Origin: Elusimicrobiota bacterium
Lineage (GTDB): Bacteria; Elusimicrobiota; Elusimicrobia; F11
Length of the DNA: 14,521 bases
Direction of reading: 5' to 3'
NCBI GenBank assembly: GCA_046153645.1
Contig: JBJXGI010000036.1
Span: forward strand, 1-14,521
The notes beneath the pieces were generated by a model. The model searched no databases. It was given only the letters and a program-made list of their open reading frames with translations, and was not told the DNA's origin. Below, one piece after another: positions 1-14,521 of this stretch. Each line of letters opens with the position of its first letter. The first letter of the stretch is position 1. A program made the translations under genes and the position numbers.

Positions 1-2
1 GA

Positions 3-719
3 ATAGAAATAGCAGATGACCTTAATAACCCCGTCTACATTATGAATGTCATTCCCACTGGGGTGGGGGAAAAGGGGCGGAAAAGACAATCTTCTTTTAA
101 GGATGATCTTAAGTTTGCGACAACCTATAATATTCTTCTTGAATTCACAGAAGAGGTAAGCAGCCCCACTTTTAAACTGGGGGATATTGAGGCCATCAAT
201 TTAACTCCGGTGGGGTCGTCAAGAAATAAATGGCAGGGGCAATTGACCACACCGCCTTCTTCATCAAATGTTTCTTGCACTGACAAATGGAAAATGTTTG
301 TGACCGCTTTTGATGATGACAATCATTTTAATTTGCCCGGGCAAAGCGGTTATTCCACGAATGCGCCACTCGACCAAAACCCAGAAACCATTGCAACCCG
401 AATTGGAACTGAACCTTATCCGTGGAATGGTTATGAAACCGATTTAGAATCACAAGCGGAAATACCGCCACCTTGCCCTTGTTCAGCTTTGGGCGACCTT
501 GAAAACCCGGTTGTTTATATCACCGACATCCCCAACCCCTCTTGCTTAGCAAACACCACCCTTAGTGTGTCAGGGCATGTGAGTGATAATTGTATTCTTC
601 AATCTCTCACGATTGATAATGAACCTGTTTCAATGACGCCCAACTTAAGTTCCACCACTTTCACAAAATCAATTGTGCTGCCCGAAGGGCCCAGTCAAAT
701 TGACATGAATATTTTTTAA
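3..719 (+). CDS. 5'-truncated ORF: stalk-less (orphan) paralogue of the N-terminal region of the giant protein; putative alternative N-terminal cassette
   Basis: The frame is open from position 3 (IEIADDLNNPVYI-MNVIP...), so the true start probably lies left of the window rather than at the ATG at 42. It is colinear with giant-protein residues ~327-565: IEIAD/IEIRD, KFATTYNILLEFTEEV/KFEKQYSIKIIFSEPV, WQG/WKG, LPGQ..APLDQNPET/LPGQ..APIDENPKT, WNGYET/WTGYET, EIPPPCPC/EIPKPCTC. It then shares an identical ~61-aa block (TDIPNPSC...GPSQID) and ends MNIF-stop. Confidence 0.85.
   Translation: MEIADDLNNPVYIMNVIPTGVGEKGRKRQSSFKDDLKFATTYNILLEFTEEVSSPTFKLGDIEAINLTPVGSSRNKWQGQLTTPPSSSNVSCTDKWKMFVTAFDDDNHFNLPGQSGYSTNAPLDQNPETIATRIGTEPYPWNGYETDLESQAEIPPPCPCSALGDLENPVVYITDIPNPSCLANTTLSVSGHVSDNCILQSLTIDNEPVSMTPNLSSTTFTKSIVLPEGPSQIDMNIF
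520..706 (+). repeat. 187-bp direct repeat, copy 1
   Basis: tcaccgacatccccaacccc...cccagtcaaattgacat matches 3032..3218 at 186/187 nt. The only difference is G638 vs A3150 (synonymous Thr, ACG/ACA). Confidence 0.97.
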
Positions 720-728
720 GTGAAAAAG

Positions 729-757
729 TTAAGCTCTATGAAAGAAGTCGTTACAAT
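729..757 (+). promoter_or_regulatory. Possible sigma70-like promoter for the 823..1521 gene and downstream operon
   Basis: TTAAGC (729-734), 17-bp spacer, TACAAT (752-757). The -10 matches 5/6 and the -35 only 3/6, in an AT-rich spacer where chance matches are common. Confidence 0.25.
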
Positions 758-809
758 AAATATTTTTTTCTTCAGAGATAAAATATCAAAATAGAAAAAA
801 CAACAAATT

Positions 810-814
810 AAGGA
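810..814 (+). promoter_or_regulatory. Shine-Dalgarno site for the 823 ORF
   Basis: AAGGA at 810-814, 8 nt before the ATG at 823. Confidence 0.6.
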
Positions 815-822
815 AAATATAA

Positions 823-1521
823 ATGAAATTATTTACAAATTTTAACAATAGCGGAAAAGCCGATCTTAAATGGGTCTATTTCTTGATTTCTTTAATTCTT
901 TTTCTTTTCATTTTTTTAGTTATAAGTATCAGATGGGTAACTAAAACAAAAATTTGGTTTATTACAGATCCAATGAAAATAGTTTTTATTGATAGTAATT
1001 CTAATCAACCTATCCCAGGAGTGTTAGTCATGACAACTTGGCAGGCTGCGTTTCCAAATCTTGGTTCAATTGATCACAATATTGATAAAAAAGAATATCT
1101 TTCTGATAAAAATGGATTACTCGGAATTTCAAAAAACAAAAGTTGGCATTTATTTTCATTTTTTACTGATCAAGTAATAGATATTTTTCATCCTTACTAT
1201 CAATCAGAAACACTTTTTTCTTATAAAAATGGAGAAAAAAAAATAATTCCATTTGATTTTCTCGAAAACCGTTTAACTTATTCTTCAGAAACGATAACGG
1301 TCCATTTAATCTCATTGAAAAGTAAATATAAAGGCATCAAATGTAGAGAACAACTAAAAATCACAGATTGCGCAGAGATTAAATTTAAATTGTCTCAAGA
1401 TTATCGTAAAACTGTTAATTATTTTAACCTCTTGCCTCAGCATTTTAACATTGAGAATACACCTTCCATAGATGATTCAATATCATATTGGAATGAACTA
1501 AATGAAAGCATCTACAATTAA
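823..1521 (+). CDS. Membrane-anchored exported protein with a carboxypeptidase-regulatory-like (transthyretin-like beta-sandwich) domain; putative immunity protein
   Basis: 232-aa ORF with an RBS. It has one N-terminal hydrophobic helix (WVYFLISLILFLFIFLVISIRWV) and the pattern IVFIDSNSNQPIPGVLV...SDKNG...IDIFHPYY, which resembles CarboxypepD_reg-like domains. It is very AT-rich and stops 3 nt before the giant gene's ATG. The immunity role is inferred from context only. Confidence 0.75.
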   Translation: MKLFTNFNNSGKADLKWVYFLISLILFLFIFLVISIRWVTKTKIWFITDPMKIVFIDSNSNQPIPGVLVMTTWQAAFPNLGSIDHNIDKKEYLSDKNGLLGISKNKSWHLFSFFTDQVIDIFHPYYQSETLFSYKNGEKKIIPFDFLENRLTYSSETITVHLISLKSKYKGIKCREQLKITDCAEIKFKLSQDYRKTVNYFNLLPQHFNIENTPSIDDSISYWNELNESIYN

Positions 1522-1524
1522 TTC

Positions 1525-1575
1525 ATGAGGAAAATATTTTTTTTAAATATTATTTTTGTCTCTCTCAGTTTTGGG
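1525..1575 (+). other. Sec/SPI signal peptide of the giant protein
   Basis: MRK, hydrophobic core IFFLNIIFVSL, then S-F-G cleavage motif. The predicted mature N-terminus is YDNLKVH. Confidence 0.75.
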
Positions 1576-4500
1576 TATGACAATCTTAAAGTTCATCCCG
1601 GATTGACTTTAAGAAGTTTGGATCTTATTTCTTCTAATAATAATTCGTATGAAGAATTAAAAATATATGAAGAAAAAATAATTCAAGGAACTAGAGATGA
1701 AGATATACCGGATTACAATGTTTTGAATCATTTTTACAACCCCGTTACTGGTAAAGGTTTGACAATTCCAGGCCATTCATTTGACCCTTCGATTGTAAAG
1801 GGGAATATTTTATTGAATGAGGCAATTTTCGATTATCAATTTAATACCAATTTCAATGAAGCATATTACAAACTAGGAAAAGCATTACACTTAATGATTC
1901 AAGATATGGCTCAGCCACAACACCTGCATGATGATGCACATGCTCCAATAAGGCTTCATGGAGACGGCACTAGATATGAAGATTATTCGGAAATAAAATT
2001 CTTAACTGTACCCAGAGCAAATTCATTAACAATATCTCCTCAAAACCTAATTACTCTAAGTAAAATACTATCACAGCACACTTATTATGATTCTATGTTT
2101 CCTGGGACACATGACCAAACCTCGATTTTAATCACTCTTCCAGATAATAAAAAAATCAAGGCATTCTATGTCCCTGAACAAGTGGTTGACTCAACAATAG
2201 TTACACCTTCTCAATGGATTATAAGAGGAAAAAACAGACTACTTAGATACAATCCTAGTAAAACTGGGGACGGATTGGCACTTGGGGAATCCTCGTTTCA
2301 GAATTGGTGGAGAGTTCCAGAGCAAGATTCAGAATTTTATTATTTTGACCTCCAAGAAAATTGGAATGAAGAAATTTCAATTCAGGGCGTTCCGCTTGAA
2401 CTGTATTATATTAATAAGTTTGTTCCATTAGCTGAAGAATATGGTGCAAGTTTTATTAAATTATTCCACGATATTGTCAATTTACCGCCATCTGTTAAAG
2501 ATATTGAAATAAGAGATCGTGAAACAGGATCTTTAATTTATGAGTCGCATATAATCCCCGACATCAATAATGGAAATAAAATTATCAATAAAAGAATTTA
2601 TTATCGGCCAAAATTCGAAAAACAATATTCAATAAAAATCATATTTAGTGAACCTGTCGAGCAAGTGAATTTTTTATTAGGAACCCAAACAGTAACTATT
2701 CAGCAGAATGATGAAAAAGGCGAAGAATGGAAGGGTGTTTTTGAAATTCCTCGAACGCCATCGTCTGGGTCATTTTTTTGTGATGATTCAAATACTCTTC
2801 CTATTTATATTACCGCTAAAGATCTCCACTATCACCAGGTTCTACCCGGCCAAAACAGTTTAACTCTCGGCGCGCCAATTGATGAAAACCCTAAGACCCC
2901 ATCATTAATAAAAGAAGTGAATAATTACTATGAATGGACCGGATATGAAACAACTGGTTTATCTCAGGGCGAAATTCCCAAGCCATGTACTTGTGATTTG
3001 GACGCTGACACTGACGCGCCACTTATTTCTCTCACCGACATCCCCAACCCCTCTTGCTTAGCAAACACCACCCTTAGTGTGTCAGGGCATGTGAGTGATA
3101 ATTGTATTCTTCAATCTCTCACGATTGATAATGAACCTGTTTCAATGACACCCAACTTAAGTTCCACCACTTTCACAAAATCAATTGTGCTGCCCGAAGG
3201 GCCCAGTCAAATTGACATTTGTGCGACCGATATGAGTGGTAATGAACACTGCCAAACCAAACAAGTAACCGTTGACAATCAACCGCCTCAAGTTACTTTG
3301 GTTCAACCCCTTAATGGCGCCACAGAAGTGGCTACAAATGCCTCGGTTAAACTGAGTTATGATGAACCGCTCTCGGAAGGATATATTTCAGGAAGTGCCG
3401 CGGGAAATTCAGTTCGAGGGGCCAATAACATTGAATACACCCACCCCACCTTTGCCATTGATAGAACCTATCACTTTAGCGCCCATTCAGTAAAAGACAC
3501 GTGTGGAAATATTTCACCTGACATGAACTGGAGTTTTACAACACAACCTTTTTTGGCAGAAATTTTGTCTCCTCGTAGAGACGACCCTACCAACAACCAC
3601 TGGGAAAAAAGAGCCGAGCTCCCTGTAAAAGTGAGAGTACAAAACCCGTTAAATATCGCAACCATCACTGTTTGTATGGCCGGTGGTTGTCAAACACAGG
3701 TGGCCCCAGCCAGCGAAAACCAAACATTAACCTTTAATTTTGACTTAACAGGAAAAGAAGATGCCTTTGTTATTACAATGAACGGAAATTATAGAGGGTT
3801 TTCTGCCACTGATAGTTCGACTAAAAAAATTGATAACAAACCACCCACTCTTCTAGCCAACCCTCAAACTTCCATTGAAGTAGATAGCCCTGATATTGAT
3901 ATTTCCCTTTTCGGTTCTGACAGTGCCTCAGGGCTGAAACGATTATCGTATGGGCAAATATCAAATACTTATTCACCAAACCAAAATATTAAAAGTGCCT
4001 CAACGGCTGGGACTCATAAAGGACTTGTGTTTGGAAATAACACATTGACCGCTTTCGTAGAAGATCAGGTGGGAAACATAACAACAGCCAATATTTTGAT
4101 TCGTCGATCCGGCCATGCGAAATGGGAAATGAAAACAATTGAAAACCATTGTGGCGGCCCCGCTCATTGGCAAACCTTGTTAGAAGGAACACCTGGACTC
4201 CAAGTATTAACTGTTTTAACTCGTCCGCGCGGAAGCCCTATTAATCGATTTCAAAAAATAAGCAGTGAGGGAACTTTAATTAACGATTTCAATGCCGCAG
4301 ATGTTGGATCGTATAAACTTTCTGTTCGAGTTAAAGTACCCAACACCGGTGAAGTGGTACTACAAAAAGAAATTAACACAGGAATTGGCGTTTGCCGACC
4401 AGATCCCACATTCATTTCTGAACTTCCTATTTTAGAACCAACGCCTCCTGACAAAAAACCGGAATCATTTTCACCCGGAAGCAGTATCGGTATTCAAGAT

Positions 4501-7500
4501 TCTTATCAAACAACTTATTCGGCTCGTTATAGCAGAACGCAAACGACTATTGATATTTATGACTATCGGGGGCGACTCATAAAAAATTTATTTTCAGCTT
4601 CGCAAAATACCGGTCTTTATTCTCTTGTATGGGATGGAAAAAATCAAACGGGACATTTTGTTGACGAAGGCCTTTACACCATACGAATTCACGAAAGAAA
4701 TTTAGATGTCCCCTCAATCCAAGATGAAGAAAGAATTTTAGTTGAAGTTGATAAAACCGCCCCGTTGGTATCGCTAGAACGTTTAGAAGCGGTAGCAGAA
4801 TCTCCCAAAGTTATTGCTGTTTGGGGTGGAATACGAGAAAACAACCCGCAAAGAATTGAAATAAACCGAATTCATGGAAATCAAATAAATAAAGTTTATT
4901 CAGAATCTCTCCCCATAAATAAAGTATTTATTTCAACCGCACACATTGAAAAATTGGCCAACATTGATACTTCTGGATGGGGAGAAGGAACCTACCAATT
5001 ACAAATAGAGGTTATTGATTTAGCGGGCAACCGAACCATTGGTGGAAATAATTTAACTTATGAGGTTTTCCCTTCAAATCAACCAGTGGTTCACATTGCA
5101 GCGGGTATTTTGGGTCAAAACTTACTGCCTGGTAACAATGAAATCATTCCGGCTGATTCACCTCAAACATTTATTGAAGATGAATTGCCACTCTCGGCCA
5201 CAGCCATTGGTGATTGGAATTGGAGTGCTGTTTCTTATAGTGGCAACAAAGCGCACACAACAACTGGCGCTGGAGCGCATTATTTTATTCACGCCAAACC
5301 AGGTATTTTTATGGGGACGACTGATAACCTCATTCAATATATTTACCGGTCTCAAGAAGTAAAAGAAATTATTCTTCAAGTTTATACCGATCAAGGAAAT
5401 GGCGAACACCGCGTTTATTGGGGAGAAAATCTATATCCATCAGGAGGAACGCCGGGAAGTGTTTCATTGGTTTACGCGGGCGCCCTGCCACCTGCCAACC
5501 GCTGGGTGAGACTTCGAATTCCGGCCGAATCAATTGGTATCCAAAATAAAACAGTAAAAGGAATTTTATTTGCCTCTGAAGGAGGGCAAGTTCTCTGGGA
5601 TAAAACCACAACGTCTAATAACACGATGGATCCCGGGGGTTTGAGCGCAACTCTCGCCCCTTCTTCGCTTGCTGGAGACAGTGCCCAGACAGAGTTGATT
5701 TATCATTTAAATCAACCAACAGCACTTAAAGTGGATGTTGTTGGAACTTCAAGTGATGTCATTAAAACCCTATTGATGGGGAATAGTGACGACCCCGCTT
5801 GTTGCACAGAAGGGGACCATTTAACAAGTTGGGATCAAAAATCAACAACGGGAAATGTAATGCCTGATGGAAATTACGCTTTTCTTATTTCTCCCTTAGA
5901 GGGCGCCATTGACACAGAAATTTTTGCACAAGACCCTTCGTTTGACCCCCTTCAAAATTCTTATCCACAACTTCAAACGCTTCCGGTTCATGATGCCAAT
6001 GGAAATAAATTTTTTATTGATTTCAATCGAATTGTTAAAAAAAACGCATCGGGCCTTATGTTGGCCAATGTGGTGGTATTGACAAGCGGAACCATTCAAT
6101 CTCTTGGGATAAATGAACGGGGCGACATTTTCTTTCAAGATTCTTTTTCTCACATTCATAAATATCAAGCGGGAAGAGTTCCCTTTAACATCAACAACAT
6201 CACTTCTTATATTCGAATTCCTTGGAATAAGGCCATGGTCAAAGCCACTGTTCCCATTGTGGGGGGAGCCGGCGGTCGACAATTTAAAGAGTTTAAAATT
6301 GATGTGGCTCCTGGTTGGCCAGAGGATACAGATAAATGGGGAAATTCATTGTCTTCTTGGACTCTTTTAAATAAAAGTGTTTCTCCCGTGGTTGATCAAT
6401 TTGTTTTGCCTCCGGGCATTAGCACTGTTTATGGAAATTTGGCCAGTTGGGAAACGGGGTTAACGCCGGGAGAAGAATATCCAGAGCAAGACATTTTCCA
6501 CCCGCAATCGGGAGATCTCTACCGGGGCCGCTGGACGGTTCGAAACACAGTGTTCAATGTTCATGGCTCAAGCAAAGTGGCACTGGTCCCGGTGATTGTG
6601 GGAAGAGTCATTAATAATGCCGTGGGTGGTGTGGTTCGCTCAGATGACAATAAAGTCAGTGTCAGTATACCGGCCTTAAGTATGGATCAAGAGTGGACTG
6701 TCATGGGACTTATTCATTTTGAAAATTCAACTCAAGAGCCAGGGTTACCGATTATCCCGTCAAATTTTCGTCAGGTGAGTTCAATTTATGAATTTTTACC
6801 ACCAGCATTTCAATTTAGACGCTCTGTAAAAATGACTTTTGAAATTCCTGAAATAGATTCCCATACCGCTCATGTTGATTTATATGAATATGAACAATCC
6901 ACTCAACATTGGAAACGGCTTGAAACAATTCGAGAATTAAACGGAGATAAACCCGTTCTCACCTTTAAGAGTTTAAATAAATTGTCCGCACCAAGAGCTT
7001 TTTACGCGTTATTAGAAAGAACCGGTGTTCCGCCACCTCCTCTACTATTTGAACCACTCACTCCCACTCAGAACCGATTTATTTCACTTCATGGGAAAGC
7101 CGAACCTTTGGCCCAGGTGTTTGGATATACCACGGAATTTAGCACCAGTCTATTTCCGGTTGAAACAACCGCAAATGAAACGGGAGAATTTTCAACGCCG
7201 CCTTTGTACTTAACGCCGGGCGTGTATTCACTTTCTGTTTCTCAACTCCCAGCTGGCTTTTCTCAAGTTTCGTCGATCCATAGTGAACCGTCCACCCCTG
7301 TTACGATTCAGGTTTTGGCACCACCACCTATTGTTCCAACAAAATTAGAATTTGTTGAAGAAGACGGAAAAACACCGCGATCTTTAAATATCAAACCGAA
7401 TGAAACGGTTTTTATCAAACTGACAGGCTCAGACACAGTGTCTTCTCAGGCGGATATTGTTTACGCAAACATAAAAAGTGAAATTTCTGATATTCAGGGC

Positions 7501-10500
7501 ATTATTATTCCGTTGGTTGAAACAGCCCCCAATAGCGGTATTTATTTGGGTAGTTTTCATATGGGTGATCGTTCAGACGTAGGAGGTTTTCAGCTAAAAG
7601 TGCTTACTCAAGGTGAAAAAATTGAAGCCCGGTTAGAATCCCATGAATCATTCCAAGCAACCGCTTATTTTGATGGGGGAAATAACAATGTGGCTCCTGA
7701 GATTGTTTCACCTTCTCATTCGGCCCTATTTCAACATACTTTTGAAACAGGGAATGAGGGTTGGTCTATTTTTGACCCTAAAAGCGGTTGTTCCATAGCC
7801 ATATCCAGTGATACTGAAACCAGTAACCGTTCTTTGCGTGTGAAACAAGAAAAACCAGGGAATTTCTCCGTTTTAATAACCAACACTCCTTTTGATGTTC
7901 GCCAATTCCCGCTATTTTCTTTTGATGTGAAGATGAATCAACCGGTCCGGTTTAATTTCTTTTTCAAAATAAACAATCATTGGAAGGAACTGGTGTTTAG
8001 CGATACCCGAGAATTACCCAAAGTTTTCCCGCCATCTTTTGACCGATTGGGCAGTTTAGAAGATGAATTTGGAAACGCGCCCATTATTCCTAATAATGAG
8101 TGGAAACAATTTAATATCAACTTATTTAACTTACTATTTAATAATAATTCTAAATTAATAAACGACTCAGACTTTATCATTCAAGAAATTATAATAGGAG
8201 ATTGGGACGCGCGCGACTTGTTTGGTGTTGTTCCAGGAAATACTCAACCAGGTTCTTGGGTTGAGTTTGACAACGTCATCATCAATAATGGTGGGGTTAA
8301 CAATTCAAATCCTGAATTTTCTTGGTCGCTGGAACCTCTTCAATCCGCCTCAGGGTATTCCTTATTATTAGATGAATCAGCGCACGGCATACCAGCTGAA
8401 ACAATTAATACGGAAAACACTCTTGCCCGCTACCTTGACGTTCAACCGGGGTACCATACCTTTCATTTGCGGGCCAGAGACCAAAATGAGCGCTGGGGAC
8501 CAGTTAATCATTTTCGTTTTTTAGTGGACTCCTCGTCGCCCTATATTGATTCAAAAGAGCCAGCCCCGGGGTCGCGTTCTGATTCTCAAATTGTGAAAAT
8601 CTATTGGAAAGACCCTAAGGGAGAAGGTCTTAATCCGGCTTCTGTTTTGTTCTCTATTAATGGAAAACAATACAATAAAAATTCTGGCGCCCTGTTTTAT
8701 GATGAAAAAAATGGATTGTTACAAATTTCATTGGGAGCCATAAAACCTGTTCCACCTATTTTATTAGATGGTCAAAATATTTCTTTTTCAATTGATGATG
8801 CCACCGATTTTGCCGGCAATCACATCACTGAACCCATTCGTTGGAATTGGACCGCGGATTTTTCTCAATTTTCAGGGGGCGACTTTGTGCCTTTAACAGT
8901 CAACGGGGGAAGAGAAGCGTCTTGGTCACCCGAGGGAGAAAAAATCGTTTTTGTATCAGACCGGAATAATCAAACTGACTTATGGGTTATCTCATCAACC
9001 GCCAGTGCCGAATCAGGTCAAATGGCGAACTGGACCCATGACTTGTTGGTGGAGCGTAATCCAAGTTGGTCTCCAAACGGGAAATGGATTGTTTATGAAG
9101 CGGTGAACAACAATCAAACACACCTTTGGATTTTAAATACAGAAACCTTAGAAAAAAGAGAAATAACCACCGGGAATAGCGAAGACACTCATCCCTCGTG
9201 GTCGACTCTGGGTGATCAATTGGTCTTTTCGAGGAAAACAAATGCACTGGCCAATTTATATCGACTTGATATTAATCCAAACACGGGGCAAGTGATGACA
9301 GAGAATCAAATAACTTTTGATACTGTTGGTTATAATTATGAGCCTGTTTTTTCTCAATTTAATAATTCCATTTTGTACAGGCGTTCACTTTACCAAGATA
9401 ATATTTTTTCGATTCATTTAAATGGAACCAATACACGTCCTCTGACAACCGGCAATAAAGAATTTTCTCCAAGAAGCAAAAACAAAGACATCTTTTTTGT
9501 TAGCAAAAGAAATGGCAATCTTCCCACGCTTTGGGTTATGGACGAGCAGGGTCGAAATGCCAAAGTTTTCCTTGAAAATAACAACCTACACGCAGACTAC
9601 GATCCTGTTTGGTCTATTGATGGAAATCGACTGGCCTTTACAAGTTTCAGATCTGGTTCTGCCAATATTTGGACAATGACATTATTAGAAGTGAAAGATT
9701 TTAATGTGACGCCGTCGCGTTTTTCGCCGATAGCTGTTTCTAGTCCGACCTGTGACATTTCATTTCATGTAACCGCCTCTGGTGCCAAAGGAAGGTTGCT
9801 TATATCCGGCTCTCATGGTTTTTCCAAAGAATTGTTAAACACAAGCACTCTTTCATCAGGAACGCATCATTTCATTTGGGATGGGAAAAGCGATTTGGGG
9901 CAATGGGGCGATAGTGGCTTTTATACAGCACAATTAAGAATTGAACCGCTTGGTTCACCTGAACCCATTTTAAAAGAAGTCAACATAACGCTGGACATGG
10001 TTCCACCAGTGTCAAAATTAAGTTCAAGCTCCGGAGAGATTCCATTTGTTTCAACCCAATCACTTTTATCAATTCAAACCACTGATTTGCCCAGCAATCA
10101 CACAGAAAATAAAATAACCGCTTATTATTCGATAAACAACTCTGATTTTCAAAAATTAACTGAACCATTTTCCGTTCCTGCTGGAACGCAAACCCTTCGT
10201 TATTATTCAGTTGATTCGGTGGGAAATAATGAAGTTGTTCAGTTACAAACCCTCTATGTGGATGATGTTCCACCGCTTGTCTTTCTATCACCTGAAGAAC
10301 CCTATTTTGAGGGGGCCACAAATTTGTATATTTCCAGCTTGAGCGCGCTGAACCTAGAGGGCAATGATCAAATTGTCAATGCCCAATCGGTATTATCAGG
10401 ACACCATTTACTTCAGTATCAAATGGATGGAGAAACCCCCGTATTTTCATCACAATCACCGCTTCGAATTCCCATTAACTCCCTTAGATTTATCAGTGGA

Positions 10501-13500
10501 AACCACAACCTAACTTATCAGAGTTATGATAAAAGTGGCAACTCCTCTGGACAGTTTTCAAAATCGTTTTTTGTCGACACGGTTATGCCAACAGTTTTTG
10601 TTTCATCTTCTCAATTGATTCATAATGGGGTTCACACCTTCGCTCGTCCAGAAACAGCCATCGAATTTTTTGGCTTAGACTTTGAATCGGGAATAGAAAA
10701 AATTTCATATCAAATTGGTAATGAGGCTCCACAAATTTTTGTAGCCACCAGAGCTTTTTGGAGCGCACTTGAAGGTGAACATAACATTCAATTTTTCTCG
10801 GAAGACCAAGTCGGGAATATTTCAAATAAAGAAACTTTAAATCTTATTGTTACCAATAACCCGCCCAGTACATATCTCGAAATAAGCGGCCCTCGGTTTC
10901 GTGATTTTGTCTCCGATCAAACGAAATTTATTGTCCATCGTGCTACGGGGAGCGCTGTTTCTTCTCTTGAAATAAATATAGATGGGCAAGGTTTTATTCC
11001 TTATCCATTAGACAGTCCTTATCAATTTCTTTCAGCAGGTTTACACACCTTTGGGTTTCGTGGCGTTTTGCCAAATGGAGAAACAGAATGGGCAGATGAA
11101 ATTTCGATTTCTGTTGATACCCAGGCACCCACTCAAAATGTTTCATTTTCAAGCCCGACCTTTGAACTCAATAACGAAAGATGGGTGGGTGTTGATACGC
11201 TGATGAGTATTTTATCCACTGACACGGTTATTCCTTATTCTGGTGTTTCTACAGCTCGATATTCTCTAAATAATTCAACGAAAAATTACGTGGCTCCCTT
11301 CACGCCAAAATTAGCAGGAATTTCAACCGAAGGATCTTATCTTTTGTCGGTTCAATCGGAAGATAATGTCAATAATAAATCAGAATGGGAAAATTTTCCT
11401 CTGCGGGTAGACGCGTCTGCGCCATTATCACAACTGAATATGGGGCAACCTCAAATTCAAATCAGTGGAAAAATTTATGTGTCGTCAAATACATTGTTTT
11501 GGCTAGAGGCACATGAACAGGGAAATATTATTTCTGGCCTTCATCAAATTTCTTACTCTACGGGATCTGCTTTTAATACTTTCACAAGTTCTTTTAACAT
11601 CACCTCTGAAGGCTCAACTCAACTTTCTTATTTTTCATCAGACCGCGTAGGAAACCATGAACCAATAAAACGCTTAAATTTTATAACTGATATTTCGCCT
11701 CCTGACATTCGATTAGAACCATTGGGAACTTCCTATCAAAATGGAGAAACACTTTTCATTACGCCCGACACCTTATTGGTAGGAGTGGCCCCAGACACAC
11801 TCTCAGGATTAAGATTATTTCAACGTTCATTAAACAATGAAGATTTTGTTGATATAGATACCCCCATTCGAATTTTTGATTCTGGTTATCACCGGCTTCG
11901 CTTAAAAGCAACCGACCAAGTTTTAAATAGCGCCATGAAAAACTTTTCTATTTTAGTTGACGGTGAACCGCCCATTTCAACCCTTACATTTTTAGGGGAT
12001 CATTACATCAAAGAATCAACCCCCGTTCTTAAAGCAGGAACTCTACTCGCGCTCTCTTCCACAGACACCTTATCAGGAGTTCGGTCCACTCAATACTTGA
12101 TTGATAACCAAGCCATTCCCACTGATTATGTTTCTCCTATTTCATTAAGTCCGGGGTCTCATTTGGTTCGCTATTTTTCTTCTGATTTTGTGAACAATAA
12201 TGAACCCGTTCATGAAATAACCGTGGTTGTCGATCAAGAAGCACCGGTGACGGAGCGTCTGTTACCTCCCACAGCCACCATTCAAAATTCAAATATTTTT
12301 GTTTCAACAGGAACTTGGGTTGAAATAAAATCAAGTGACCGTCCTCTATTAATGGGGGTTGGGGTTATGAAATTAGAATGGCGTTTTAATGATTCGGTGC
12401 CAAATGTTTTAGTTTCATCGGGTTCTCAAAGTTTGTCAGCTTACATTCAGTTAAATGACTTAGGTATTCACACCATTAAAACTTATGGAGCTGATTTATT
12501 TGGGAATCAAGAAAATGAAAAAACTTTTACCCTCTGGGTGACAAGTTCACCGCCAACCCCTGATCCTGTCATTGTGGATATCAGCTCTCCAGTAACGTCC
12601 GTTTTTATTGAAGGCAACTCAATTGATTTGGCGGGTCACATATTTGTTAGTCCTAAGTCTCAAATAAAATTATTAGCTCAAGATGCATCACAAAACGCTT
12701 CTGGTGTGGCTGGAATATATGCGCGCTGGGATTCAAATAACTATGCCTCATTTTCAAGCTCATGGCCTGTTTTCAGCGGAAGTCACACACTTTCCTACTA
12801 TGCCGTTGATAATGCTGGAAATATAGAAATTCCTCATACCTTAACAGTTCACTCAGCCCCTTGGCTGGAACCAGGTTTTTATACAAACGACAAATCTGAC
12901 TTTCGTGGTTTCACCCATATTCAAGGAGATATTTTTAGCGGCGGTTCATTCAACGCGAAAGGGAAAGGACGCGTGAGTGGAAAAATTCGGTCGACTTCAA
13001 TTCAAATGCCCTCGGATTGGGTTGTTGAAGGGGAAGTGAATTTTGATCCCGTTCTATTTGAAGACTTACCCATGACCGAAATTGAGAATATGATGAACCT
13101 TCAAACCTCTTTACCCGACATTCATCTTCAAGACAACAGCCTCCTTCATCTCAGTAGCGGAAGTTATTTTTATCGTTCTTTGGTGATGGAGGGTCAGAGT
13201 CGATTGGAAGTTGAGGGCCCTGTTCAAATATATGTGTTAAATAAATTTTCGATCAGCGAGAATGCTCAAATTGTTTCGAGCGATTCATTTCATCAAGTTT
13301 TATTTGTTGCCTTAGGGGAGGAGAAAATTTCAATTCATGGTGGAAAAAACTCTCATTGGCACGGTCTTTTATTGGCGCCTGCAAGAGATATTCAGCTTTC
13401 AGGAACTGCGCGGTTGACGGGGAGTGTGTATGCTAAAAATTTATTCTCTATTGGGTCTCTCATTTTAAAATCAGGAGCTGAAAATGACCCTATTGATTTT

Positions 13501-13848
13501 TTTGATGAAGAGAAACTGGCCTCTGCATTAGATGCGACATTTGAATTAAAAAATTTATACGCCTATCCCAACCCGGCCCAAAAAGGGGATATCCCTAAAA
13601 TTCATGTTGAAGTGGGGGTGGCAGAACATGTGGAATGCCTTATTTTAGATTCAGCGGGAGAATTTGTTCGTCAAATTGAAAATCGTGATTTCCCCATTAT
13701 TTTAAATACACCTCAAGGACCTCAGTTCTCATATGAGTTCGTGATTGATGGGCATCTTCCTTCTGGTGTTTATCGTTATATTGTGACAGCCAAGAAAGCA
13801 AGTGAAACTCTTATTAGAAGAACAGGTCAATTCACGGTGATAAGGTAA
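1525..13848 (+). CDS. Giant (4107 aa) secreted multidomain protein: N-terminal Zn-phospholipase C/P1-nuclease-like domain, long stalk, T9SS-type C-terminal sorting domain; putative polymorphic toxin/adhesin
   Basis: Uninterrupted 12.3-kb ORF with a Sec-type signal peptide (MRKIFFLNIIFVSLSFG). Domain motifs are listed in the sub-features. A PorV-family gene follows 3 nt after the stop. Confidence 0.93.
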   Translation: MRKIFFLNIIFVSLSFGYDNLKVHPGLTLRSLDLISSNNNSYEELKIYEEKIIQGTRDEDIPDYNVLNHFYNPVTGKGLTIPGHSFDPSIVKGNILLNEAIFDYQFNTNFNEAYYKLGKALHLMIQDMAQPQHLHDDAHAPIRLHGDGTRYEDYSEIKFLTVPRANSLTISPQNLITLSKILSQHTYYDSMFPGTHDQTSILITLPDNKKIKAFYVPEQVVDSTIVTPSQWIIRGKNRLLRYNPSKTGDGLALGESSFQNWWRVPEQDSEFYYFDLQENWNEEISIQGVPLELYYINKFVPLAEEYGASFIKLFHDIVNLPPSVKDIEIRDRETGSLIYESHIIPDINNGNKIINKRIYYRPKFEKQYSIKIIFSEPVEQVNFLLGTQTVTIQQNDEKGEEWKGVFEIPRTPSSGSFFCDDSNTLPIYITAKDLHYHQVLPGQNSLTLGAPIDENPKTPSLIKEVNNYYEWTGYETTGLSQGEIPKPCTCDLDADTDAPLISLTDIPNPSCLANTTLSVSGHVSDNCILQSLTIDNEPVSMTPNLSSTTFTKSIVLPEGPSQIDICATDMSGNEHCQTKQVTVDNQPPQVTLVQPLNGATEVATNASVKLSYDEPLSEGYISGSAAGNSVRGANNIEYTHPTFAIDRTYHFSAHSVKDTCGNISPDMNWSFTTQPFLAEILSPRRDDPTNNHWEKRAELPVKVRVQNPLNIATITVCMAGGCQTQVAPASENQTLTFNFDLTGKEDAFVITMNGNYRGFSATDSSTKKIDNKPPTLLANPQTSIEVDSPDIDISLFGSDSASGLKRLSYGQISNTYSPNQNIKSASTAGTHKGLVFGNNTLTAFVEDQVGNITTANILIRRSGHAKWEMKTIENHCGGPAHWQTLLEGTPGLQVLTVLTRPRGSPINRFQKISSEGTLINDFNAADVGSYKLSVRVKVPNTGEVVLQKEINTGIGVCRPDPTFISELPILEPTPPDKKPESFSPGSSIGIQDSYQTTYSARYSRTQTTIDIYDYRGRLIKNLFSASQNTGLYSLVWDGKNQTGHFVDEGLYTIRIHERNLDVPSIQDEERILVEVDKTAPLVSLERLEAVAESPKVIAVWGGIRENNPQRIEINRIHGNQINKVYSESLPINKVFISTAHIEKLANIDTSGWGEGTYQLQIEVIDLAGNRTIGGNNLTYEVFPSNQPVVHIAAGILGQNLLPGNNEIIPADSPQTFIEDELPLSATAIGDWNWSAVSYSGNKAHTTTGAGAHYFIHAKPGIFMGTTDNLIQYIYRSQEVKEIILQVYTDQGNGEHRVYWGENLYPSGGTPGSVSLVYAGALPPANRWVRLRIPAESIGIQNKTVKGILFASEGGQVLWDKTTTSNNTMDPGGLSATLAPSSLAGDSAQTELIYHLNQPTALKVDVVGTSSDVIKTLLMGNSDDPACCTEGDHLTSWDQKSTTGNVMPDGNYAFLISPLEGAIDTEIFAQDPSFDPLQNSYPQLQTLPVHDANGNKFFIDFNRIVKKNASGLMLANVVVLTSGTIQSLGINERGDIFFQDSFSHIHKYQAGRVPFNINNITSYIRIPWNKAMVKATVPIVGGAGGRQFKEFKIDVAPGWPEDTDKWGNSLSSWTLLNKSVSPVVDQFVLPPGISTVYGNLASWETGLTPGEEYPEQDIFHPQSGDLYRGRWTVRNTVFNVHGSSKVALVPVIVGRVINNAVGGVVRSDDNKVSVSIPALSMDQEWTVMGLIHFENSTQEPGLPIIPSNFRQVSSIYEFLPPAFQFRRSVKMTFEIPEIDSHTAHVDLYEYEQSTQHWKRLETIRELNGDKPVLTFKSLNKLSAPRAFYALLERTGVPPPPLLFEPLTPTQNRFISLHGKAEPLAQVFGYTTEFSTSLFPVETTANETGEFSTPPLYLTPGVYSLSVSQLPAGFSQVSSIHSEPSTPVTIQVLAPPPIVPTKLEFVEEDGKTPRSLNIKPNETVFIKLTGSDTVSSQADIVYANIKSEISDIQGIIIPLVETAPNSGIYLGSFHMGDRSDVGGFQLKVLTQGEKIEARLESHESFQATAYFDGGNNNVAPEIVSPSHSALFQHTFETGNEGWSIFDPKSGCSIAISSDTETSNRSLRVKQEKPGNFSVLITNTPFDVRQFPLFSFDVKMNQPVRFNFFFKINNHWKELVFSDTRELPKVFPPSFDRLGSLEDEFGNAPIIPNNEWKQFNINLFNLLFNNNSKLINDSDFIIQEIIIGDWDARDLFGVVPGNTQPGSWVEFDNVIINNGGVNNSNPEFSWSLEPLQSASGYSLLLDESAHGIPAETINTENTLARYLDVQPGYHTFHLRARDQNERWGPVNHFRFLVDSSSPYIDSKEPAPGSRSDSQIVKIYWKDPKGEGLNPASVLFSINGKQYNKNSGALFYDEKNGLLQISLGAIKPVPPILLDGQNISFSIDDATDFAGNHITEPIRWNWTADFSQFSGGDFVPLTVNGGREASWSPEGEKIVFVSDRNNQTDLWVISSTASAESGQMANWTHDLLVERNPSWSPNGKWIVYEAVNNNQTHLWILNTETLEKREITTGNSEDTHPSWSTLGDQLVFSRKTNALANLYRLDINPNTGQVMTENQITFDTVGYNYEPVFSQFNNSILYRRSLYQDNIFSIHLNGTNTRPLTTGNKEFSPRSKNKDIFFVSKRNGNLPTLWVMDEQGRNAKVFLENNNLHADYDPVWSIDGNRLAFTSFRSGSANIWTMTLLEVKDFNVTPSRFSPIAVSSPTCDISFHVTASGAKGRLLISGSHGFSKELLNTSTLSSGTHHFIWDGKSDLGQWGDSGFYTAQLRIEPLGSPEPILKEVNITLDMVPPVSKLSSSSGEIPFVSTQSLLSIQTTDLPSNHTENKITAYYSINNSDFQKLTEPFSVPAGTQTLRYYSVDSVGNNEVVQLQTLYVDDVPPLVFLSPEEPYFEGATNLYISSLSALNLEGNDQIVNAQSVLSGHHLLQYQMDGETPVFSSQSPLRIPINSLRFISGNHNLTYQSYDKSGNSSGQFSKSFFVDTVMPTVFVSSSQLIHNGVHTFARPETAIEFFGLDFESGIEKISYQIGNEAPQIFVATRAFWSALEGEHNIQFFSEDQVGNISNKETLNLIVTNNPPSTYLEISGPRFRDFVSDQTKFIVHRATGSAVSSLEINIDGQGFIPYPLDSPYQFLSAGLHTFGFRGVLPNGETEWADEISISVDTQAPTQNVSFSSPTFELNNERWVGVDTLMSILSTDTVIPYSGVSTARYSLNNSTKNYVAPFTPKLAGISTEGSYLLSVQSEDNVNNKSEWENFPLRVDASAPLSQLNMGQPQIQISGKIYVSSNTLFWLEAHEQGNIISGLHQISYSTGSAFNTFTSSFNITSEGSTQLSYFSSDRVGNHEPIKRLNFITDISPPDIRLEPLGTSYQNGETLFITPDTLLVGVAPDTLSGLRLFQRSLNNEDFVDIDTPIRIFDSGYHRLRLKATDQVLNSAMKNFSILVDGEPPISTLTFLGDHYIKESTPVLKAGTLLALSSTDTLSGVRSTQYLIDNQAIPTDYVSPISLSPGSHLVRYFSSDFVNNNEPVHEITVVVDQEAPVTERLLPPTATIQNSNIFVSTGTWVEIKSSDRPLLMGVGVMKLEWRFNDSVPNVLVSSGSQSLSAYIQLNDLGIHTIKTYGADLFGNQENEKTFTLWVTSSPPTPDPVIVDISSPVTSVFIEGNSIDLAGHIFVSPKSQIKLLAQDASQNASGVAGIYARWDSNNYASFSSSWPVFSGSHTLSYYAVDNAGNIEIPHTLTVHSAPWLEPGFYTNDKSDFRGFTHIQGDIFSGGSFNAKGKGRVSGKIRSTSIQMPSDWVVEGEVNFDPVLFEDLPMTEIENMMNLQTSLPDIHLQDNSLLHLSSGSYFYRSLVMEGQSRLEVEGPVQIYVLNKFSISENAQIVSSDSFHQVLFVALGEEKISIHGGKNSHWHGLLLAPARDIQLSGTARLTGSVYAKNLFSIGSLILKSGAENDPIDFFDEEKLASALDATFELKNLYAYPNPAQKGDIPKIHVEVGVAEHVECLILDSAGEFVRQIENRDFPIILNTPQGPQFSYEFVIDGHLPSGVYRYIVTAKKASETLIRRTGQFTVIR
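1576..2100 (+). other. Zinc-dependent phospholipase C / S1-P1 nuclease-fold domain (approximate bounds)
   Basis: Motifs occur in the order typical of the tri-zinc helical fold: aromatic mature N-terminus plus His (YDNLKVH), GTRDED, NHFYNP, AYYKLGKALHLMIQDMAQPQH, HDDAH, YEDY. Confidence 0.75.
3010..4110 (+). other. Tandem bacterial Ig-like domains, including an SbsA/Big_5-like unit (approximate bounds)
   Basis: Recurring D-x-x-(A/P)-P starts and A-x-D-x-x-GN ends (ATDMSGN, KDTCGN, VEDQVGN). PPQVTLVQPLNGATEVATNASVKLSYDEPL...WSFTT is typical of Big_5. Confidence 0.65.
3032..3218 (+). repeat. 187-bp direct repeat, copy 2 (inside the giant gene, first Ig-like stalk domain)
   Basis: 186/187 identical to 520..706. 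The offset is 2512 bp and both copies are translated in the same frame. Confidence 0.97.
4470..4760 (+). other. FlgD-like Ig domain 1 (similar units at ~5690-5900 and ~9690-9995)
   Basis: TIDIYDYRGRLIKNL...GLYSLVWDGKNQTGHFVDEGLYTIRI. Compare SWDQKSTTGNVMPDGNY and FIWDGKSDLGQWGDSGFYTAQL. Confidence 0.75.
8885..9685 (+). other. TolB-like beta-propeller (about six PD40 repeats)
   Basis: ASWSPEGEKIVFVSDR, PSWSPNGKWIVY, PSWSTLGDQLVFSR, PVFSQFNNSILY, a degenerate SPRSKNKDIFFVSKR, and PVWSIDGNRLAFTSFRSG. Confidence 0.85.
9994..12855 (+). repeat. About ten tandem ~95-aa beta-sandwich protein repeats (OmpL47-type/Ig-like), diverged at DNA level
   Basis: Units start D-x-x-(P/A)-P and end with YYSVDSVGNNE, YQSYDKSGNSS, FFSEDQVGNIS, FRGVLPNGETE, VQSEDNVNNKS, YFSSDRVGNHE, LKATDQVLNSA, YFSSDFVNNNE, TYGADLFGNQE, YYAVDNAGNIE. 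Confidence 0.75.
13537..13848 (+). other. T9SS (Por) type C-terminal sorting domain-like region
   Basis: LYAYPNP...ILDSAGEFVRQI...LPSGVYRYIVTA...GQFTVIR-stop matches the YPNP / I(Y/F)DxxG / GxY / terminal (K/R) pattern of T9SS C-terminal domains. Confidence 0.8.
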
Positions 13849-13851
13849 TTT

Positions 13852-14521
13852 ATGAAAAAATTTCTTCTTGTTATTGTTTGGGCTTCATTATTCATTCAGT
13901 TTCCATTGAGCGTTTTTTCAGAACAAAGGAAATCTGGCGCTTCATTTTTGAAATTAGGAGCAGGCGCCAGAGAATTGGGATTGGGGTCTGCCGCCTCAGC
14001 TATCAGTGAAGGCTCTAACTCACTTTATTGGAACCCTGCCGGTTGCGCAAAACTATCCGCAACGGAGTTTTCTTTTACACATGCCGATTGGTTGGGAGAT
14101 GCTCACTATGATTATTTTGGAATTGTTTCACCAACAAAATGGGGAAATTGGGGAATAAGCGGTATATATTTTAACCCTGGTTCACAAGAGGGGCGAGACG
14201 CTGCTGGCCTTAGAACAGGTTCTTTTTCTGCAAGTGATGTGGCCATGGGATTAAGCTACGCAAAAGAAGCTTTTCCTCATTTTGGACTAGGAACCCAAGT
14301 CAAATATATCGAGAGTCACCTTGGAAGAGAGTCAGCCAAAACATTCGCTCTTGATTTTGGCGGTCAATATTCTTTTCGAAATGGATTTATCATAGGTTCT
14401 AGCATTCGTCATTTAGGGCCGGCTCAAAAATTTATTGAACAAAAAGACCCCTTACCTCTTATTTTTTCTATTGGCGTTTCAAAAGTTTTTGCGCCCGTTT
14501 TTTTGGTTTCTATTGACTTCG
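13852..14521 (+). CDS. PorV/PorQ-family (FadL-like, UPF0164) outer-membrane beta-barrel protein, 3'-truncated by the window edge
   Basis: Not in the ORF track because there is no stop in the window. My translation is MKKFLLVIVWASLFIQFPLSVFSEQRKSGASFLKLGAGARELGLGSAASAISEGSNSLYWNPAG...FSFTHADWLGD...GLSYAK...GTQVKYI...ALDFGGQY...IRHLGP...DPLP. It has a signal peptide and the FLKxGxGARxxGxG...YWNPAG family signature, and is open for 223 codons to the edge. Confidence 0.9.
   Translation, partial: MKKFLLVIVWASLFIQFPLSVFSEQRKSGASFLKLGAGARELGLGSAASAISEGSNSLYWNPAGCAKLSATEFSFTHADWLGDAHYDYFGIVSPTKWGNWGISGIYFNPGSQEGRDAAGLRTGSFSASDVAMGLSYAKEAFPHFGLGTQVKYIESHLGRESAKTFALDFGGQYSFRNGFIIGSSIRHLGPAQKFIEQKDPLPLIFSIGVSKVFAPVFLVSIDF

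Follow-up and report, generated by a model that had tools for sequence, protein, structure and literature searches.

Why should a gene for a giant protein be preceded by a short, nearly exact copy of a piece of its own interior, when the sequences leading into the two copies are strongly diverged? This question is raised by a 14,521-bp stretch of DNA from an Elusimicrobiota bacterium (assembly GCA_046153645.1, contig JBJXGI010000036.1, positions 1 to 14,521, forward strand; hereafter the window, which is the whole of contig C84), in which the two copies of a 187-bp direct repeat lie on either side of the start of a 4107-codon gene. In the most likely reading, the repeat is a scar: a phospholipase-like N-terminus, new to the locus and arriving with its partner gene, displaced an older pair from a giant, putatively secreted protein. 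We assign a probability of roughly 60% to the wider reading of a polymorphic effector locus in mirror image, which has diversified through displacement of N-termini and in which the giant protein would be exported, its enzymatic head would attack neighbours or prey, and the partner would block the head; toxicity and immunity are inferred here from the chemistry of the head and from the pairing only.

Contig C45 ends in the first 127 bases of the window and completes the locus, giving the gene order Fn3-rich gene, HEAT-repeat gene, partner A (247 aa), gene A (592 aa), partner B, gene B and a PorV-family gene (Table 1). The arrangement is a tandem of two modules, each consisting of a membrane-anchored partner gene followed by a signal peptide, a head of phospholipase C (PLC) fold and a linker. 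Only the downstream module is fused to the stalk and to a C-terminal sorting-type tail in front of the PorV-family gene, while the upstream module retains 62 stalk codons before a stop that ends 13 bp past the repeat. The upstream frame, which the initial annotation had taken for an N-terminus, is in fact a complete gene with its own partner, beginning on C45; likewise, the exchanged unit had rightly been described as a small gene plus the N-terminus of the giant gene, but its nature as an enzyme head with its cognate partner had been missed.

The repeat itself proved to be as initially described, that is, near-identical, in frame and with a single synonymous change. Its copies (offset 2512 bp) agree at 186 of 187 bases and share the same codon phase, the sole difference being G at 638 and A at 3150 (ACG/ACA, Thr), and mismatches start again directly at 519 and 707, flanking the repeat on either side. 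With a blastn E-value of 1.7e-91, it is the window's only such match in the 2.63-Mb genome besides the 127-bp contig overlap, and the remaining 19 direct-repeat families listed in the window have imperfect copies of 20-29 bp. The strong divergence claimed for the sequence upstream of each copy was borne out: linkers A and B can be aligned only as protein (118/242 residues identical in all, a figure that drops to about 30% once the repeat is set aside), and at the DNA level there is no alignment beyond short matches of 14-69 bp. Four-fold sites are equal at 8/30 positions between PLC domains A and B, against 20/21 in the repeat; silent sites are thus saturated between the heads and not within the repeat, which excludes the even decay of an old duplication and upholds the recent event that had been proposed. 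As judged from these sequences, the two heads go back to one lineage as old alleles or paralogs, and the repeat that connects them is very young.

Between A and B, the N-terminal domains share 38% identity and, on profile and model evidence, have a Zn-dependent PLC fold with its metal ligands. A 33-row head profile matches the phospholipases C of B. cereus and Listeria at E-values from 1e-14 to 1.5e-19 (1ah7: E 1e-14); PF00882 is matched by 12 of the 33 rows, and the window's own head gives no PF00882 match. The His/Asp metal ligands that are invariant across the 33 rows are present in both heads, so head A has not decayed. The structure model of the head (pLDDT 87.6) returned only Zn-PLCs among the top 14 Foldseek rows, with a probability of 1.0. 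The likeness to the Zn-dependent phospholipase C/P1 nuclease fold (PF00882; PDB 1ah7, 8cqm) lies in the helical architecture and the His/Asp ligands, whereas a beta-rich insertion, fusion to a 3500-aa stalk and an obligate-looking partner set the present heads apart. This fold also includes S1/P1 nucleases (PMC3482391), and the substrate may be lipid or nucleic acid. In base composition, the partners (27-29% GC) and the PLC domains (33-34%) fall among the lowest 0-3% of 1195 long open reading frames (ORFs) of the genome, whose 72nd percentile is reached by the stalk with 40.7%.

The two partners share 31% identity, and each carries a single hydrophobic helix at its N-terminus. The partner model combines a transthyretin-like sandwich with helices, and the fold search (best Z 8.7) tied among transthyretin-like sandwiches and yielded no functional name. 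We regard partner B as a candidate protective protein, either an immunity protein or an inhibitor. Using a profile seeded on six partners from loci of the phylum, and taking heads with at least 700 bp upstream as assessable, a partner was found within 250 bp upstream of 52 of the 66 PLC heads that qualified, out of a total of 84 at 78 metagenome loci; 54 of 58 partner matches precede a head, the loci having been found via the head. When the search was started from the partner side, 11 strong matches were obtained, seven of which precede a PLC head, two lie near contig ends, one is interrupted and one stands before an ORF with no head match. The partners of NlpC heads in two genomes belong to a shared, separate family (35% identical, E 2e-46), and partner type, on this sequence comparison, follows head type. 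The prediction of a complex between head B and partner B scored 0.00 and was used neither for nor against the pairing. At Patescibacteria-type loci (L055, L058, L061 and L095), large PLC-headed proteins are preceded by a different membrane-anchored gene of 157-176 aa.

For the comparison with other genomes, 52 regions of relatives were read. The head profile was matched in 62 of 401 genomes of the phylum, a count that includes this genome and weak stand-alone PLCs, and viral contigs held no relative. In the tree of heads, a named Elusimicrobiota record (L059) clusters with loci of that phylum, in keeping with a probable origin of the window in it. A frequent layout is HEAT gene, partner, head-stalk-tail gene and PorV gene, and the order HEAT, partner, PLC head at loci L037, L038, L049 and L050 is that of module A, so module B is likely the newcomer. 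In genome G281, a stalk 40% identical over 818 aa stands behind the same upstream Fn3 gene and bears no PLC head, and its homology begins at the Ig (immunoglobulin-like) domain of the repeat. Also in G281, upstream of the giant gene (L173:2776-5131), there is a 217-aa secreted protein with an HExxH-like motif next to HEAT-like genes, one of them split, which may be another displaced head.

Arrays of detached heads occur in two further genomes. That of G046 (L052) holds a stub, a partner with an NlpC/P60-like head (1416 aa), a partner with an M23 head (354 aa) and a partner with a PLC head that runs off the contig end. In G071, the array comprises a PLC head cut at 586 aa, an NlpC/P60-like head, a cut 753-aa stalk piece, and a partner followed by a full-length gene of 4356 aa that starts with an Amidase_3 head and ends in a tail above the TIGR04183 cut-off; its loci are L050 and L174-L176, of which L050 and L174 may adjoin. 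Elsewhere in G071, lipase heads (PGAP1-like) are carried on a homologous stalk. The NlpC/P60 identity is based on a two-row profile that matches MepS at E 5e-4, together with a motif that we take to be that of the family. One constant carrier is accordingly seen with PLC, NlpC/P60-like, M23, Amidase_3 and PGAP1-like lipase heads, the stalks being homologous within G046 and within G071. Detached cassettes with carrier homology lie beside the main gene in the window, L052, L174 and L175; their truncation points differ between arrays, and in L174 the identity runs toward the break at 100, 98, 92 and 73% in 60-bp windows.

The sequence of events that we favour would start from an ancestral allele composed of partner A, head A and stalk. 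Incoming DNA would have brought in partner B together with head B, the latter already attached to a near-identical stalk, entering by homologous recombination in the stalk on the right and a non-homologous join at 706/707 on the left or, alternatively, as a circle through one crossover in the repeat; head A would have kept 187 bp of its former stalk. Both recA and comEC are present in the genome, and the same scheme, in the opposite orientation, has been put forward for the type VI secretion arrays of Vibrio (PMC5361080) and for Rhs tips (PMC2935791). The variable end would be the N-terminus, with old heads and partners accumulating upstream, because export would need the C-terminus, if the protein behaves as do type IX secretion system (T9SS) substrates, whose export depends on that end (PMC7073777). 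The giant protein would leave the cell by a T9SS-like, PorV-dependent route; the stalk would hold a membrane-lipid-cleaving head far from the cell, attacking neighbours or prey, and the partner, placed in the producer's inner membrane and facing the periplasm, would block the head.

In favour of this reading stand the contrast in age between heads and repeat, the Zn-PLC fold with its ligands in both heads, the module-A gene order in four relatives, the other N-terminus on the G281 stalk, the arrays with further head families, the pairing of partner type with head type, the low GC of heads and partners, which Rhs tips share (PMC2935791), and the position of the stop in the upstream copies, 6-24 bp past the end of homology in 6/6 truncation cases, the window's included. 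Several observations weigh against it. None of the 40 nearest genomes matches a single head query, so no conspecific allele with A only or B only was seen, and most relatives possess a single module and no upstream cassette (e.g., L037-L040, L042-L046). The six truncation cases were chosen by eye in three genomes. At the 20 named-genome loci, only 2 of 18 heads have this partner family, and the partner of the G046 PLC head is unrelated to that of the window. The codon usage of the cassettes (71st-100th percentile) bears no foreign mark. As regards export, the window's tail weakly resembles the PorZ tail (E 2.8e-5) and stays below the cut-off of TIGR04183 (E 0.023, 14.7 of 23 bits), which a homologous tail in L174 passes (32.6 bits). 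In the genome, 14 matches to the PorV family exceed the cut-off and SprA is matched weakly (E 9e-5), but GldN and a C25 sortase were not found, in a search whose controls were silent and in which GldK, L and M were not included; the export route, judged from these matches, may thus be called T9SS-like at most.

The first alternative, which we consider unlikely, is an old partial tandem duplication of partner, head and stalk start, followed by divergence in place and a recent gene conversion of the 187 bp only, no cassette having come in. Heads A and B are indeed sisters in a tree of 38 heads (100/98), on long branches and with A flagged for composition, a result that an old local duplication would also give and that therefore counts against displacement, too. 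So do the metagenome loci L103, L157 and L160, which read partner, short head, partner, long head and look like plain partial tandem duplications: two of them align across the whole module (75% over 1529 bp and 84.5% over 1226 bp), so plain partial duplication also builds such arrays, and whole-module partial duplications in L103 and L157 favour this alternative, as does the rise of identity in L174, which could come from patchy conversion. Conversion after duplication, however, leaves unexplained how heads of unrelated families, with partners to match, come to stand in arrays on one stalk, requires a useless 62-codon stub to persist while silent sites became saturated, and does not account for a left edge of identity that coincides with the head/stalk boundary also found in G281.

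A second alternative, again improbable in our estimate, keeps the same displacement history and sees in the heads hydrolases for feeding, predation or surface remodelling, with the partner acting as a folding helper or activator and no immunity in kin conflict. Every head seen is predicted to attack envelopes, whether their lipid or their peptidoglycan; giant genes of related phyla have been linked to the degradation of cell walls by predators (10.1101/2023.11.21.568195), and the Patescibacteria heads are preceded by another small anchored gene. Nevertheless, one partner per head, kept with displaced heads, in units of low GC, is the pattern of toxin-immunity loci as outlined in PMC4436062.

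It is very unlikely that the locus is a working, selected two-state switch, with the 2512-bp cassette leaving and rejoining it often enough for heads A and B to alternate in the population. A crossover between the repeats would, as the initial annotation had it, remove 2512 bp and fuse the reading frames, producing an intact A-stalk gene of 4131 aa in which head A keeps its start and its ligands. This product has a counterpart in the Salmonella rhs fusion, with 522 bp at 95% identity (PMC3967940), and recA is present in the genome. The exchangeable cassette that had been proposed is supported to this extent, but not as one in active exchange. The available reads, four public runs of one study at about 4x depth and as short, fragmented contigs only, provide a test that is weak both ways. 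The check suggested with the initial annotation gave neither an A-stalk joint nor an excised circle among the contigs listed in these runs, with the 706/707 junction (bins 601-800) uncovered in all four, and both results add to the points against displacement; the depth over cassette B in run X1 is not below that of the flanks. One contig of run X2, with G at 3150, joins the copy-1 allele to the stalk; it cannot be phased, and collapse of the two copies at a short word length explains it equally well. By ORF reading and Pfam, there is no recombinase on C45 or C84, distant recombinases lying outside that search, and the break points vary across arrays, unlike those of a fixed site. An insertion scar that could revert fits the evidence better than a programmed switch, and RecA recombination between the repeats could, as a side possibility, restore head A at low frequency. 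Finally, mis-assembly of two strains (A-stalk and B-stalk) at the repeat would suit a metagenome bin with a contig break 400 bp upstream, a 706/707 junction unseen in four runs and contigs that cross 3218 unbroken, but is extremely improbable, since the 127-bp contig overlap points to 127-letter words, which surpass in length the repeat's two exact stretches (118 and 68 bp) and would span each copy, the stop after the end of homology recurs in two other genomes, and contigs that begin exactly at 3032 in X1 and X2, or end at 549 in X1, are what two left contexts would produce, each linker running into its own copy.

By definition, a polymorphic toxin has a C-terminal toxin domain, N-terminal trafficking domains and, downstream, its immunity gene (PMC4436062, PMC9424270, PMC3482391). 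Here, the enzyme head is N-terminal and the sorting-type tail C-terminal, the partner lies directly upstream, and the downstream gene is of the PorV family. The locus thus lacks two classical features and displays two others, a variable enzyme on a constant carrier and detached cassettes; it would work like such a system and is no classical member of it. Its closest parallel is the C-terminal displacement of Rhs proteins with their orphan tips (Jackson 2009, PMC2935791; Koskiniemi 2014, PMC3967940), in which near-identical core fragments of varying length form direct repeats, the variable ends are dissimilar and of low GC, displaced ends stand in arrays, and an orphan can be re-attached by recombination. 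In contrast to Rhs, the variable end is here N-terminal, the partner and the displaced modules lie upstream, Rhs repeats are lacking, and displaced heads keep a start codon and signal peptide, which Rhs orphans mostly do not. With polymorphic toxins that include contact-dependent inhibition (Jamet and Nassif 2015, PMC4436062; Zhang 2012, PMC3482391), the locus shares a secreted multidomain protein, a variable enzyme domain, a small adjacent partner, extra cassettes and a neighbouring secretion gene, whereas toxin end, trafficking end and immunity side are all three inverted and the toxin is a candidate only. Sequential displacement of effector-immunity pairs of the Vibrio cholerae type VI secretion system (PMC5361080), for which homology-facilitated illegitimate recombination has been proposed, also leaves old modules arrayed, although mostly immunity genes remain there, unlike the whole, intact heads seen here without such a secretion system. 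The TANFOR polymorphic toxins of Bacteroidetes (PMC7073777) possess a signal peptide and a proposed T9SS link, but TANFOR is N-terminal, the toxin C-terminal, immunity downstream and the T9SS substrates are neighbours, while in our locus it is the toxin candidate that bears the sorting-type tail.

T9SS-linked toxins are mentioned without this polarity in passages of PMC12419801 and 10.64898/2026.09.22.753552, and the literature searched contained no account of N-terminal displacement or of this polarity; supplements were outside its scope, and architectures of this kind may be listed in those of PMC3482391 and PMC12419801. Tentatively, the locus may represent a class of polymorphic toxin systems with reversed polarity within this uncultured phylum, with giant stalks, PorV-linked T9SS-like export and interchangeable, envelope-attacking N-terminal heads, whose displaced heads, expressible without the export tail and trapped in the periplasm, would force retention of the partner and could be re-armed via the repeat. 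Reviews and discovery pipelines look at C-terminal tips with downstream immunity, and a family of opposite polarity would escape them. If the reading is true, many PorV-linked giant proteins of a little-known phylum would have a role in competition, the widespread unit of PLC and partner would provide new candidate toxin-immunity pairs, and the window would preserve an unusually fresh displacement event with both junctions readable base by base.

Table 1. Features of the window and of the adjoining part of gene A
Feature	Position	Strand	Description
Gene A, 5' part	L001:4076 (gene start, contig C45)		Signal peptide and PLC-like domain also on C45
Displaced head A gene, 3' part	1..719	+	Ig-like linker, repeat copy 1, stop at 717-719
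Repeat copy 1	520..706	+	Initial ~62 codons of the Ig domain that opens the stalk; the end of the domain is missing
Spacer, 116 bp, 20% GC	707..822	+	Left edge is the putative non-homologous junction
Partner gene B, 232 aa	823..1521	+	N-terminal membrane anchor, transthyretin-like (CarboxypepD_reg-like) sandwich, helical C-terminus
Giant, putatively secreted protein gene B, 4107 aa	1525..13848	+	Head B, linker, repeat copy 2, Ig/FlgD/beta-propeller stalk, sorting-type tail
Signal peptide and Zn-dependent phospholipase C/P1-fold head B	1525..2502	+	Metal ligands intact; signal peptide placed by alignment position
Linker B	2503..3031	+	Homologous to linker A, about 30% protein identity; travels with the head
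Repeat copy 2	3032..3218	+	Beginning of the constant stalk; in a relative that shares the stalk, the N-terminus changes at this domain
C-terminal domain like T9SS type A sorting domains	13480..13848	+	Weak, below cut-off
PorV/PorQ-family gene	13852..14521	+	NF033709, 136.8 bits (cut-off 90); cut by contig end

The signal peptides of these proteins are short and are missed by a hydrophobicity scan. The stalk of gene B (~3540 aa) contains Ig, FlgD and PD40 domains by Pfam, which found neither Rhs/YD nor haemagglutinin repeats in the giant protein, and the repeat copy in the giant gene has a Glucodextran_B-like Ig match below cut-off. In the spacer, promoter-like sites are not in excess (6 against 6.0 expected in the scan) and there is no terminator; Rfam and tRNA searches gave no match. 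A 24-codon open frame (707-781) starts at the junction and might be what is left of a truncated donor gene, at a length within chance. Just 5' of partner A (L001:3303-3343) lies a palindrome resembling repetitive extragenic palindromic elements, with copies on at least five other contigs. The contig break (window 1-127, L001:5136-5262) coincides with the transition from PLC domain A to its linker, and an assembly fork there could reflect a further allele.

Two relatives carry, upstream of the HEAT gene, inverted copies of the post-head linker, so that HEAT gene and head are flanked: in G285 (L035:7644-8025 versus 5116-5497), 382 bp at 98.4%, and in G367 (L048:3940-4217 versus 1277-1620), two segments, one of 205 bp at 90% and one of 78 bp at 94%. 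Inversion between such copies would detach the head from the stalk, as a possible on/off switch or a scar. Within the genome studied here, dozens of giant ORFs of up to 10179 aa (e.g., C86:11312-41851, and others on C74, C80, C31 and C29) have a signal-like motif in common at the N-terminus, and their last two residues are often Ala-Ala, Gln-Ala or Asn-Ala; duplicated C-terminal stubs occur with some of them. On contig C63, Rhs-like fragments repeated at 90% identity (1538-2066 versus 2865-3393), with small genes between them, look like a classical C-terminal orphan array.

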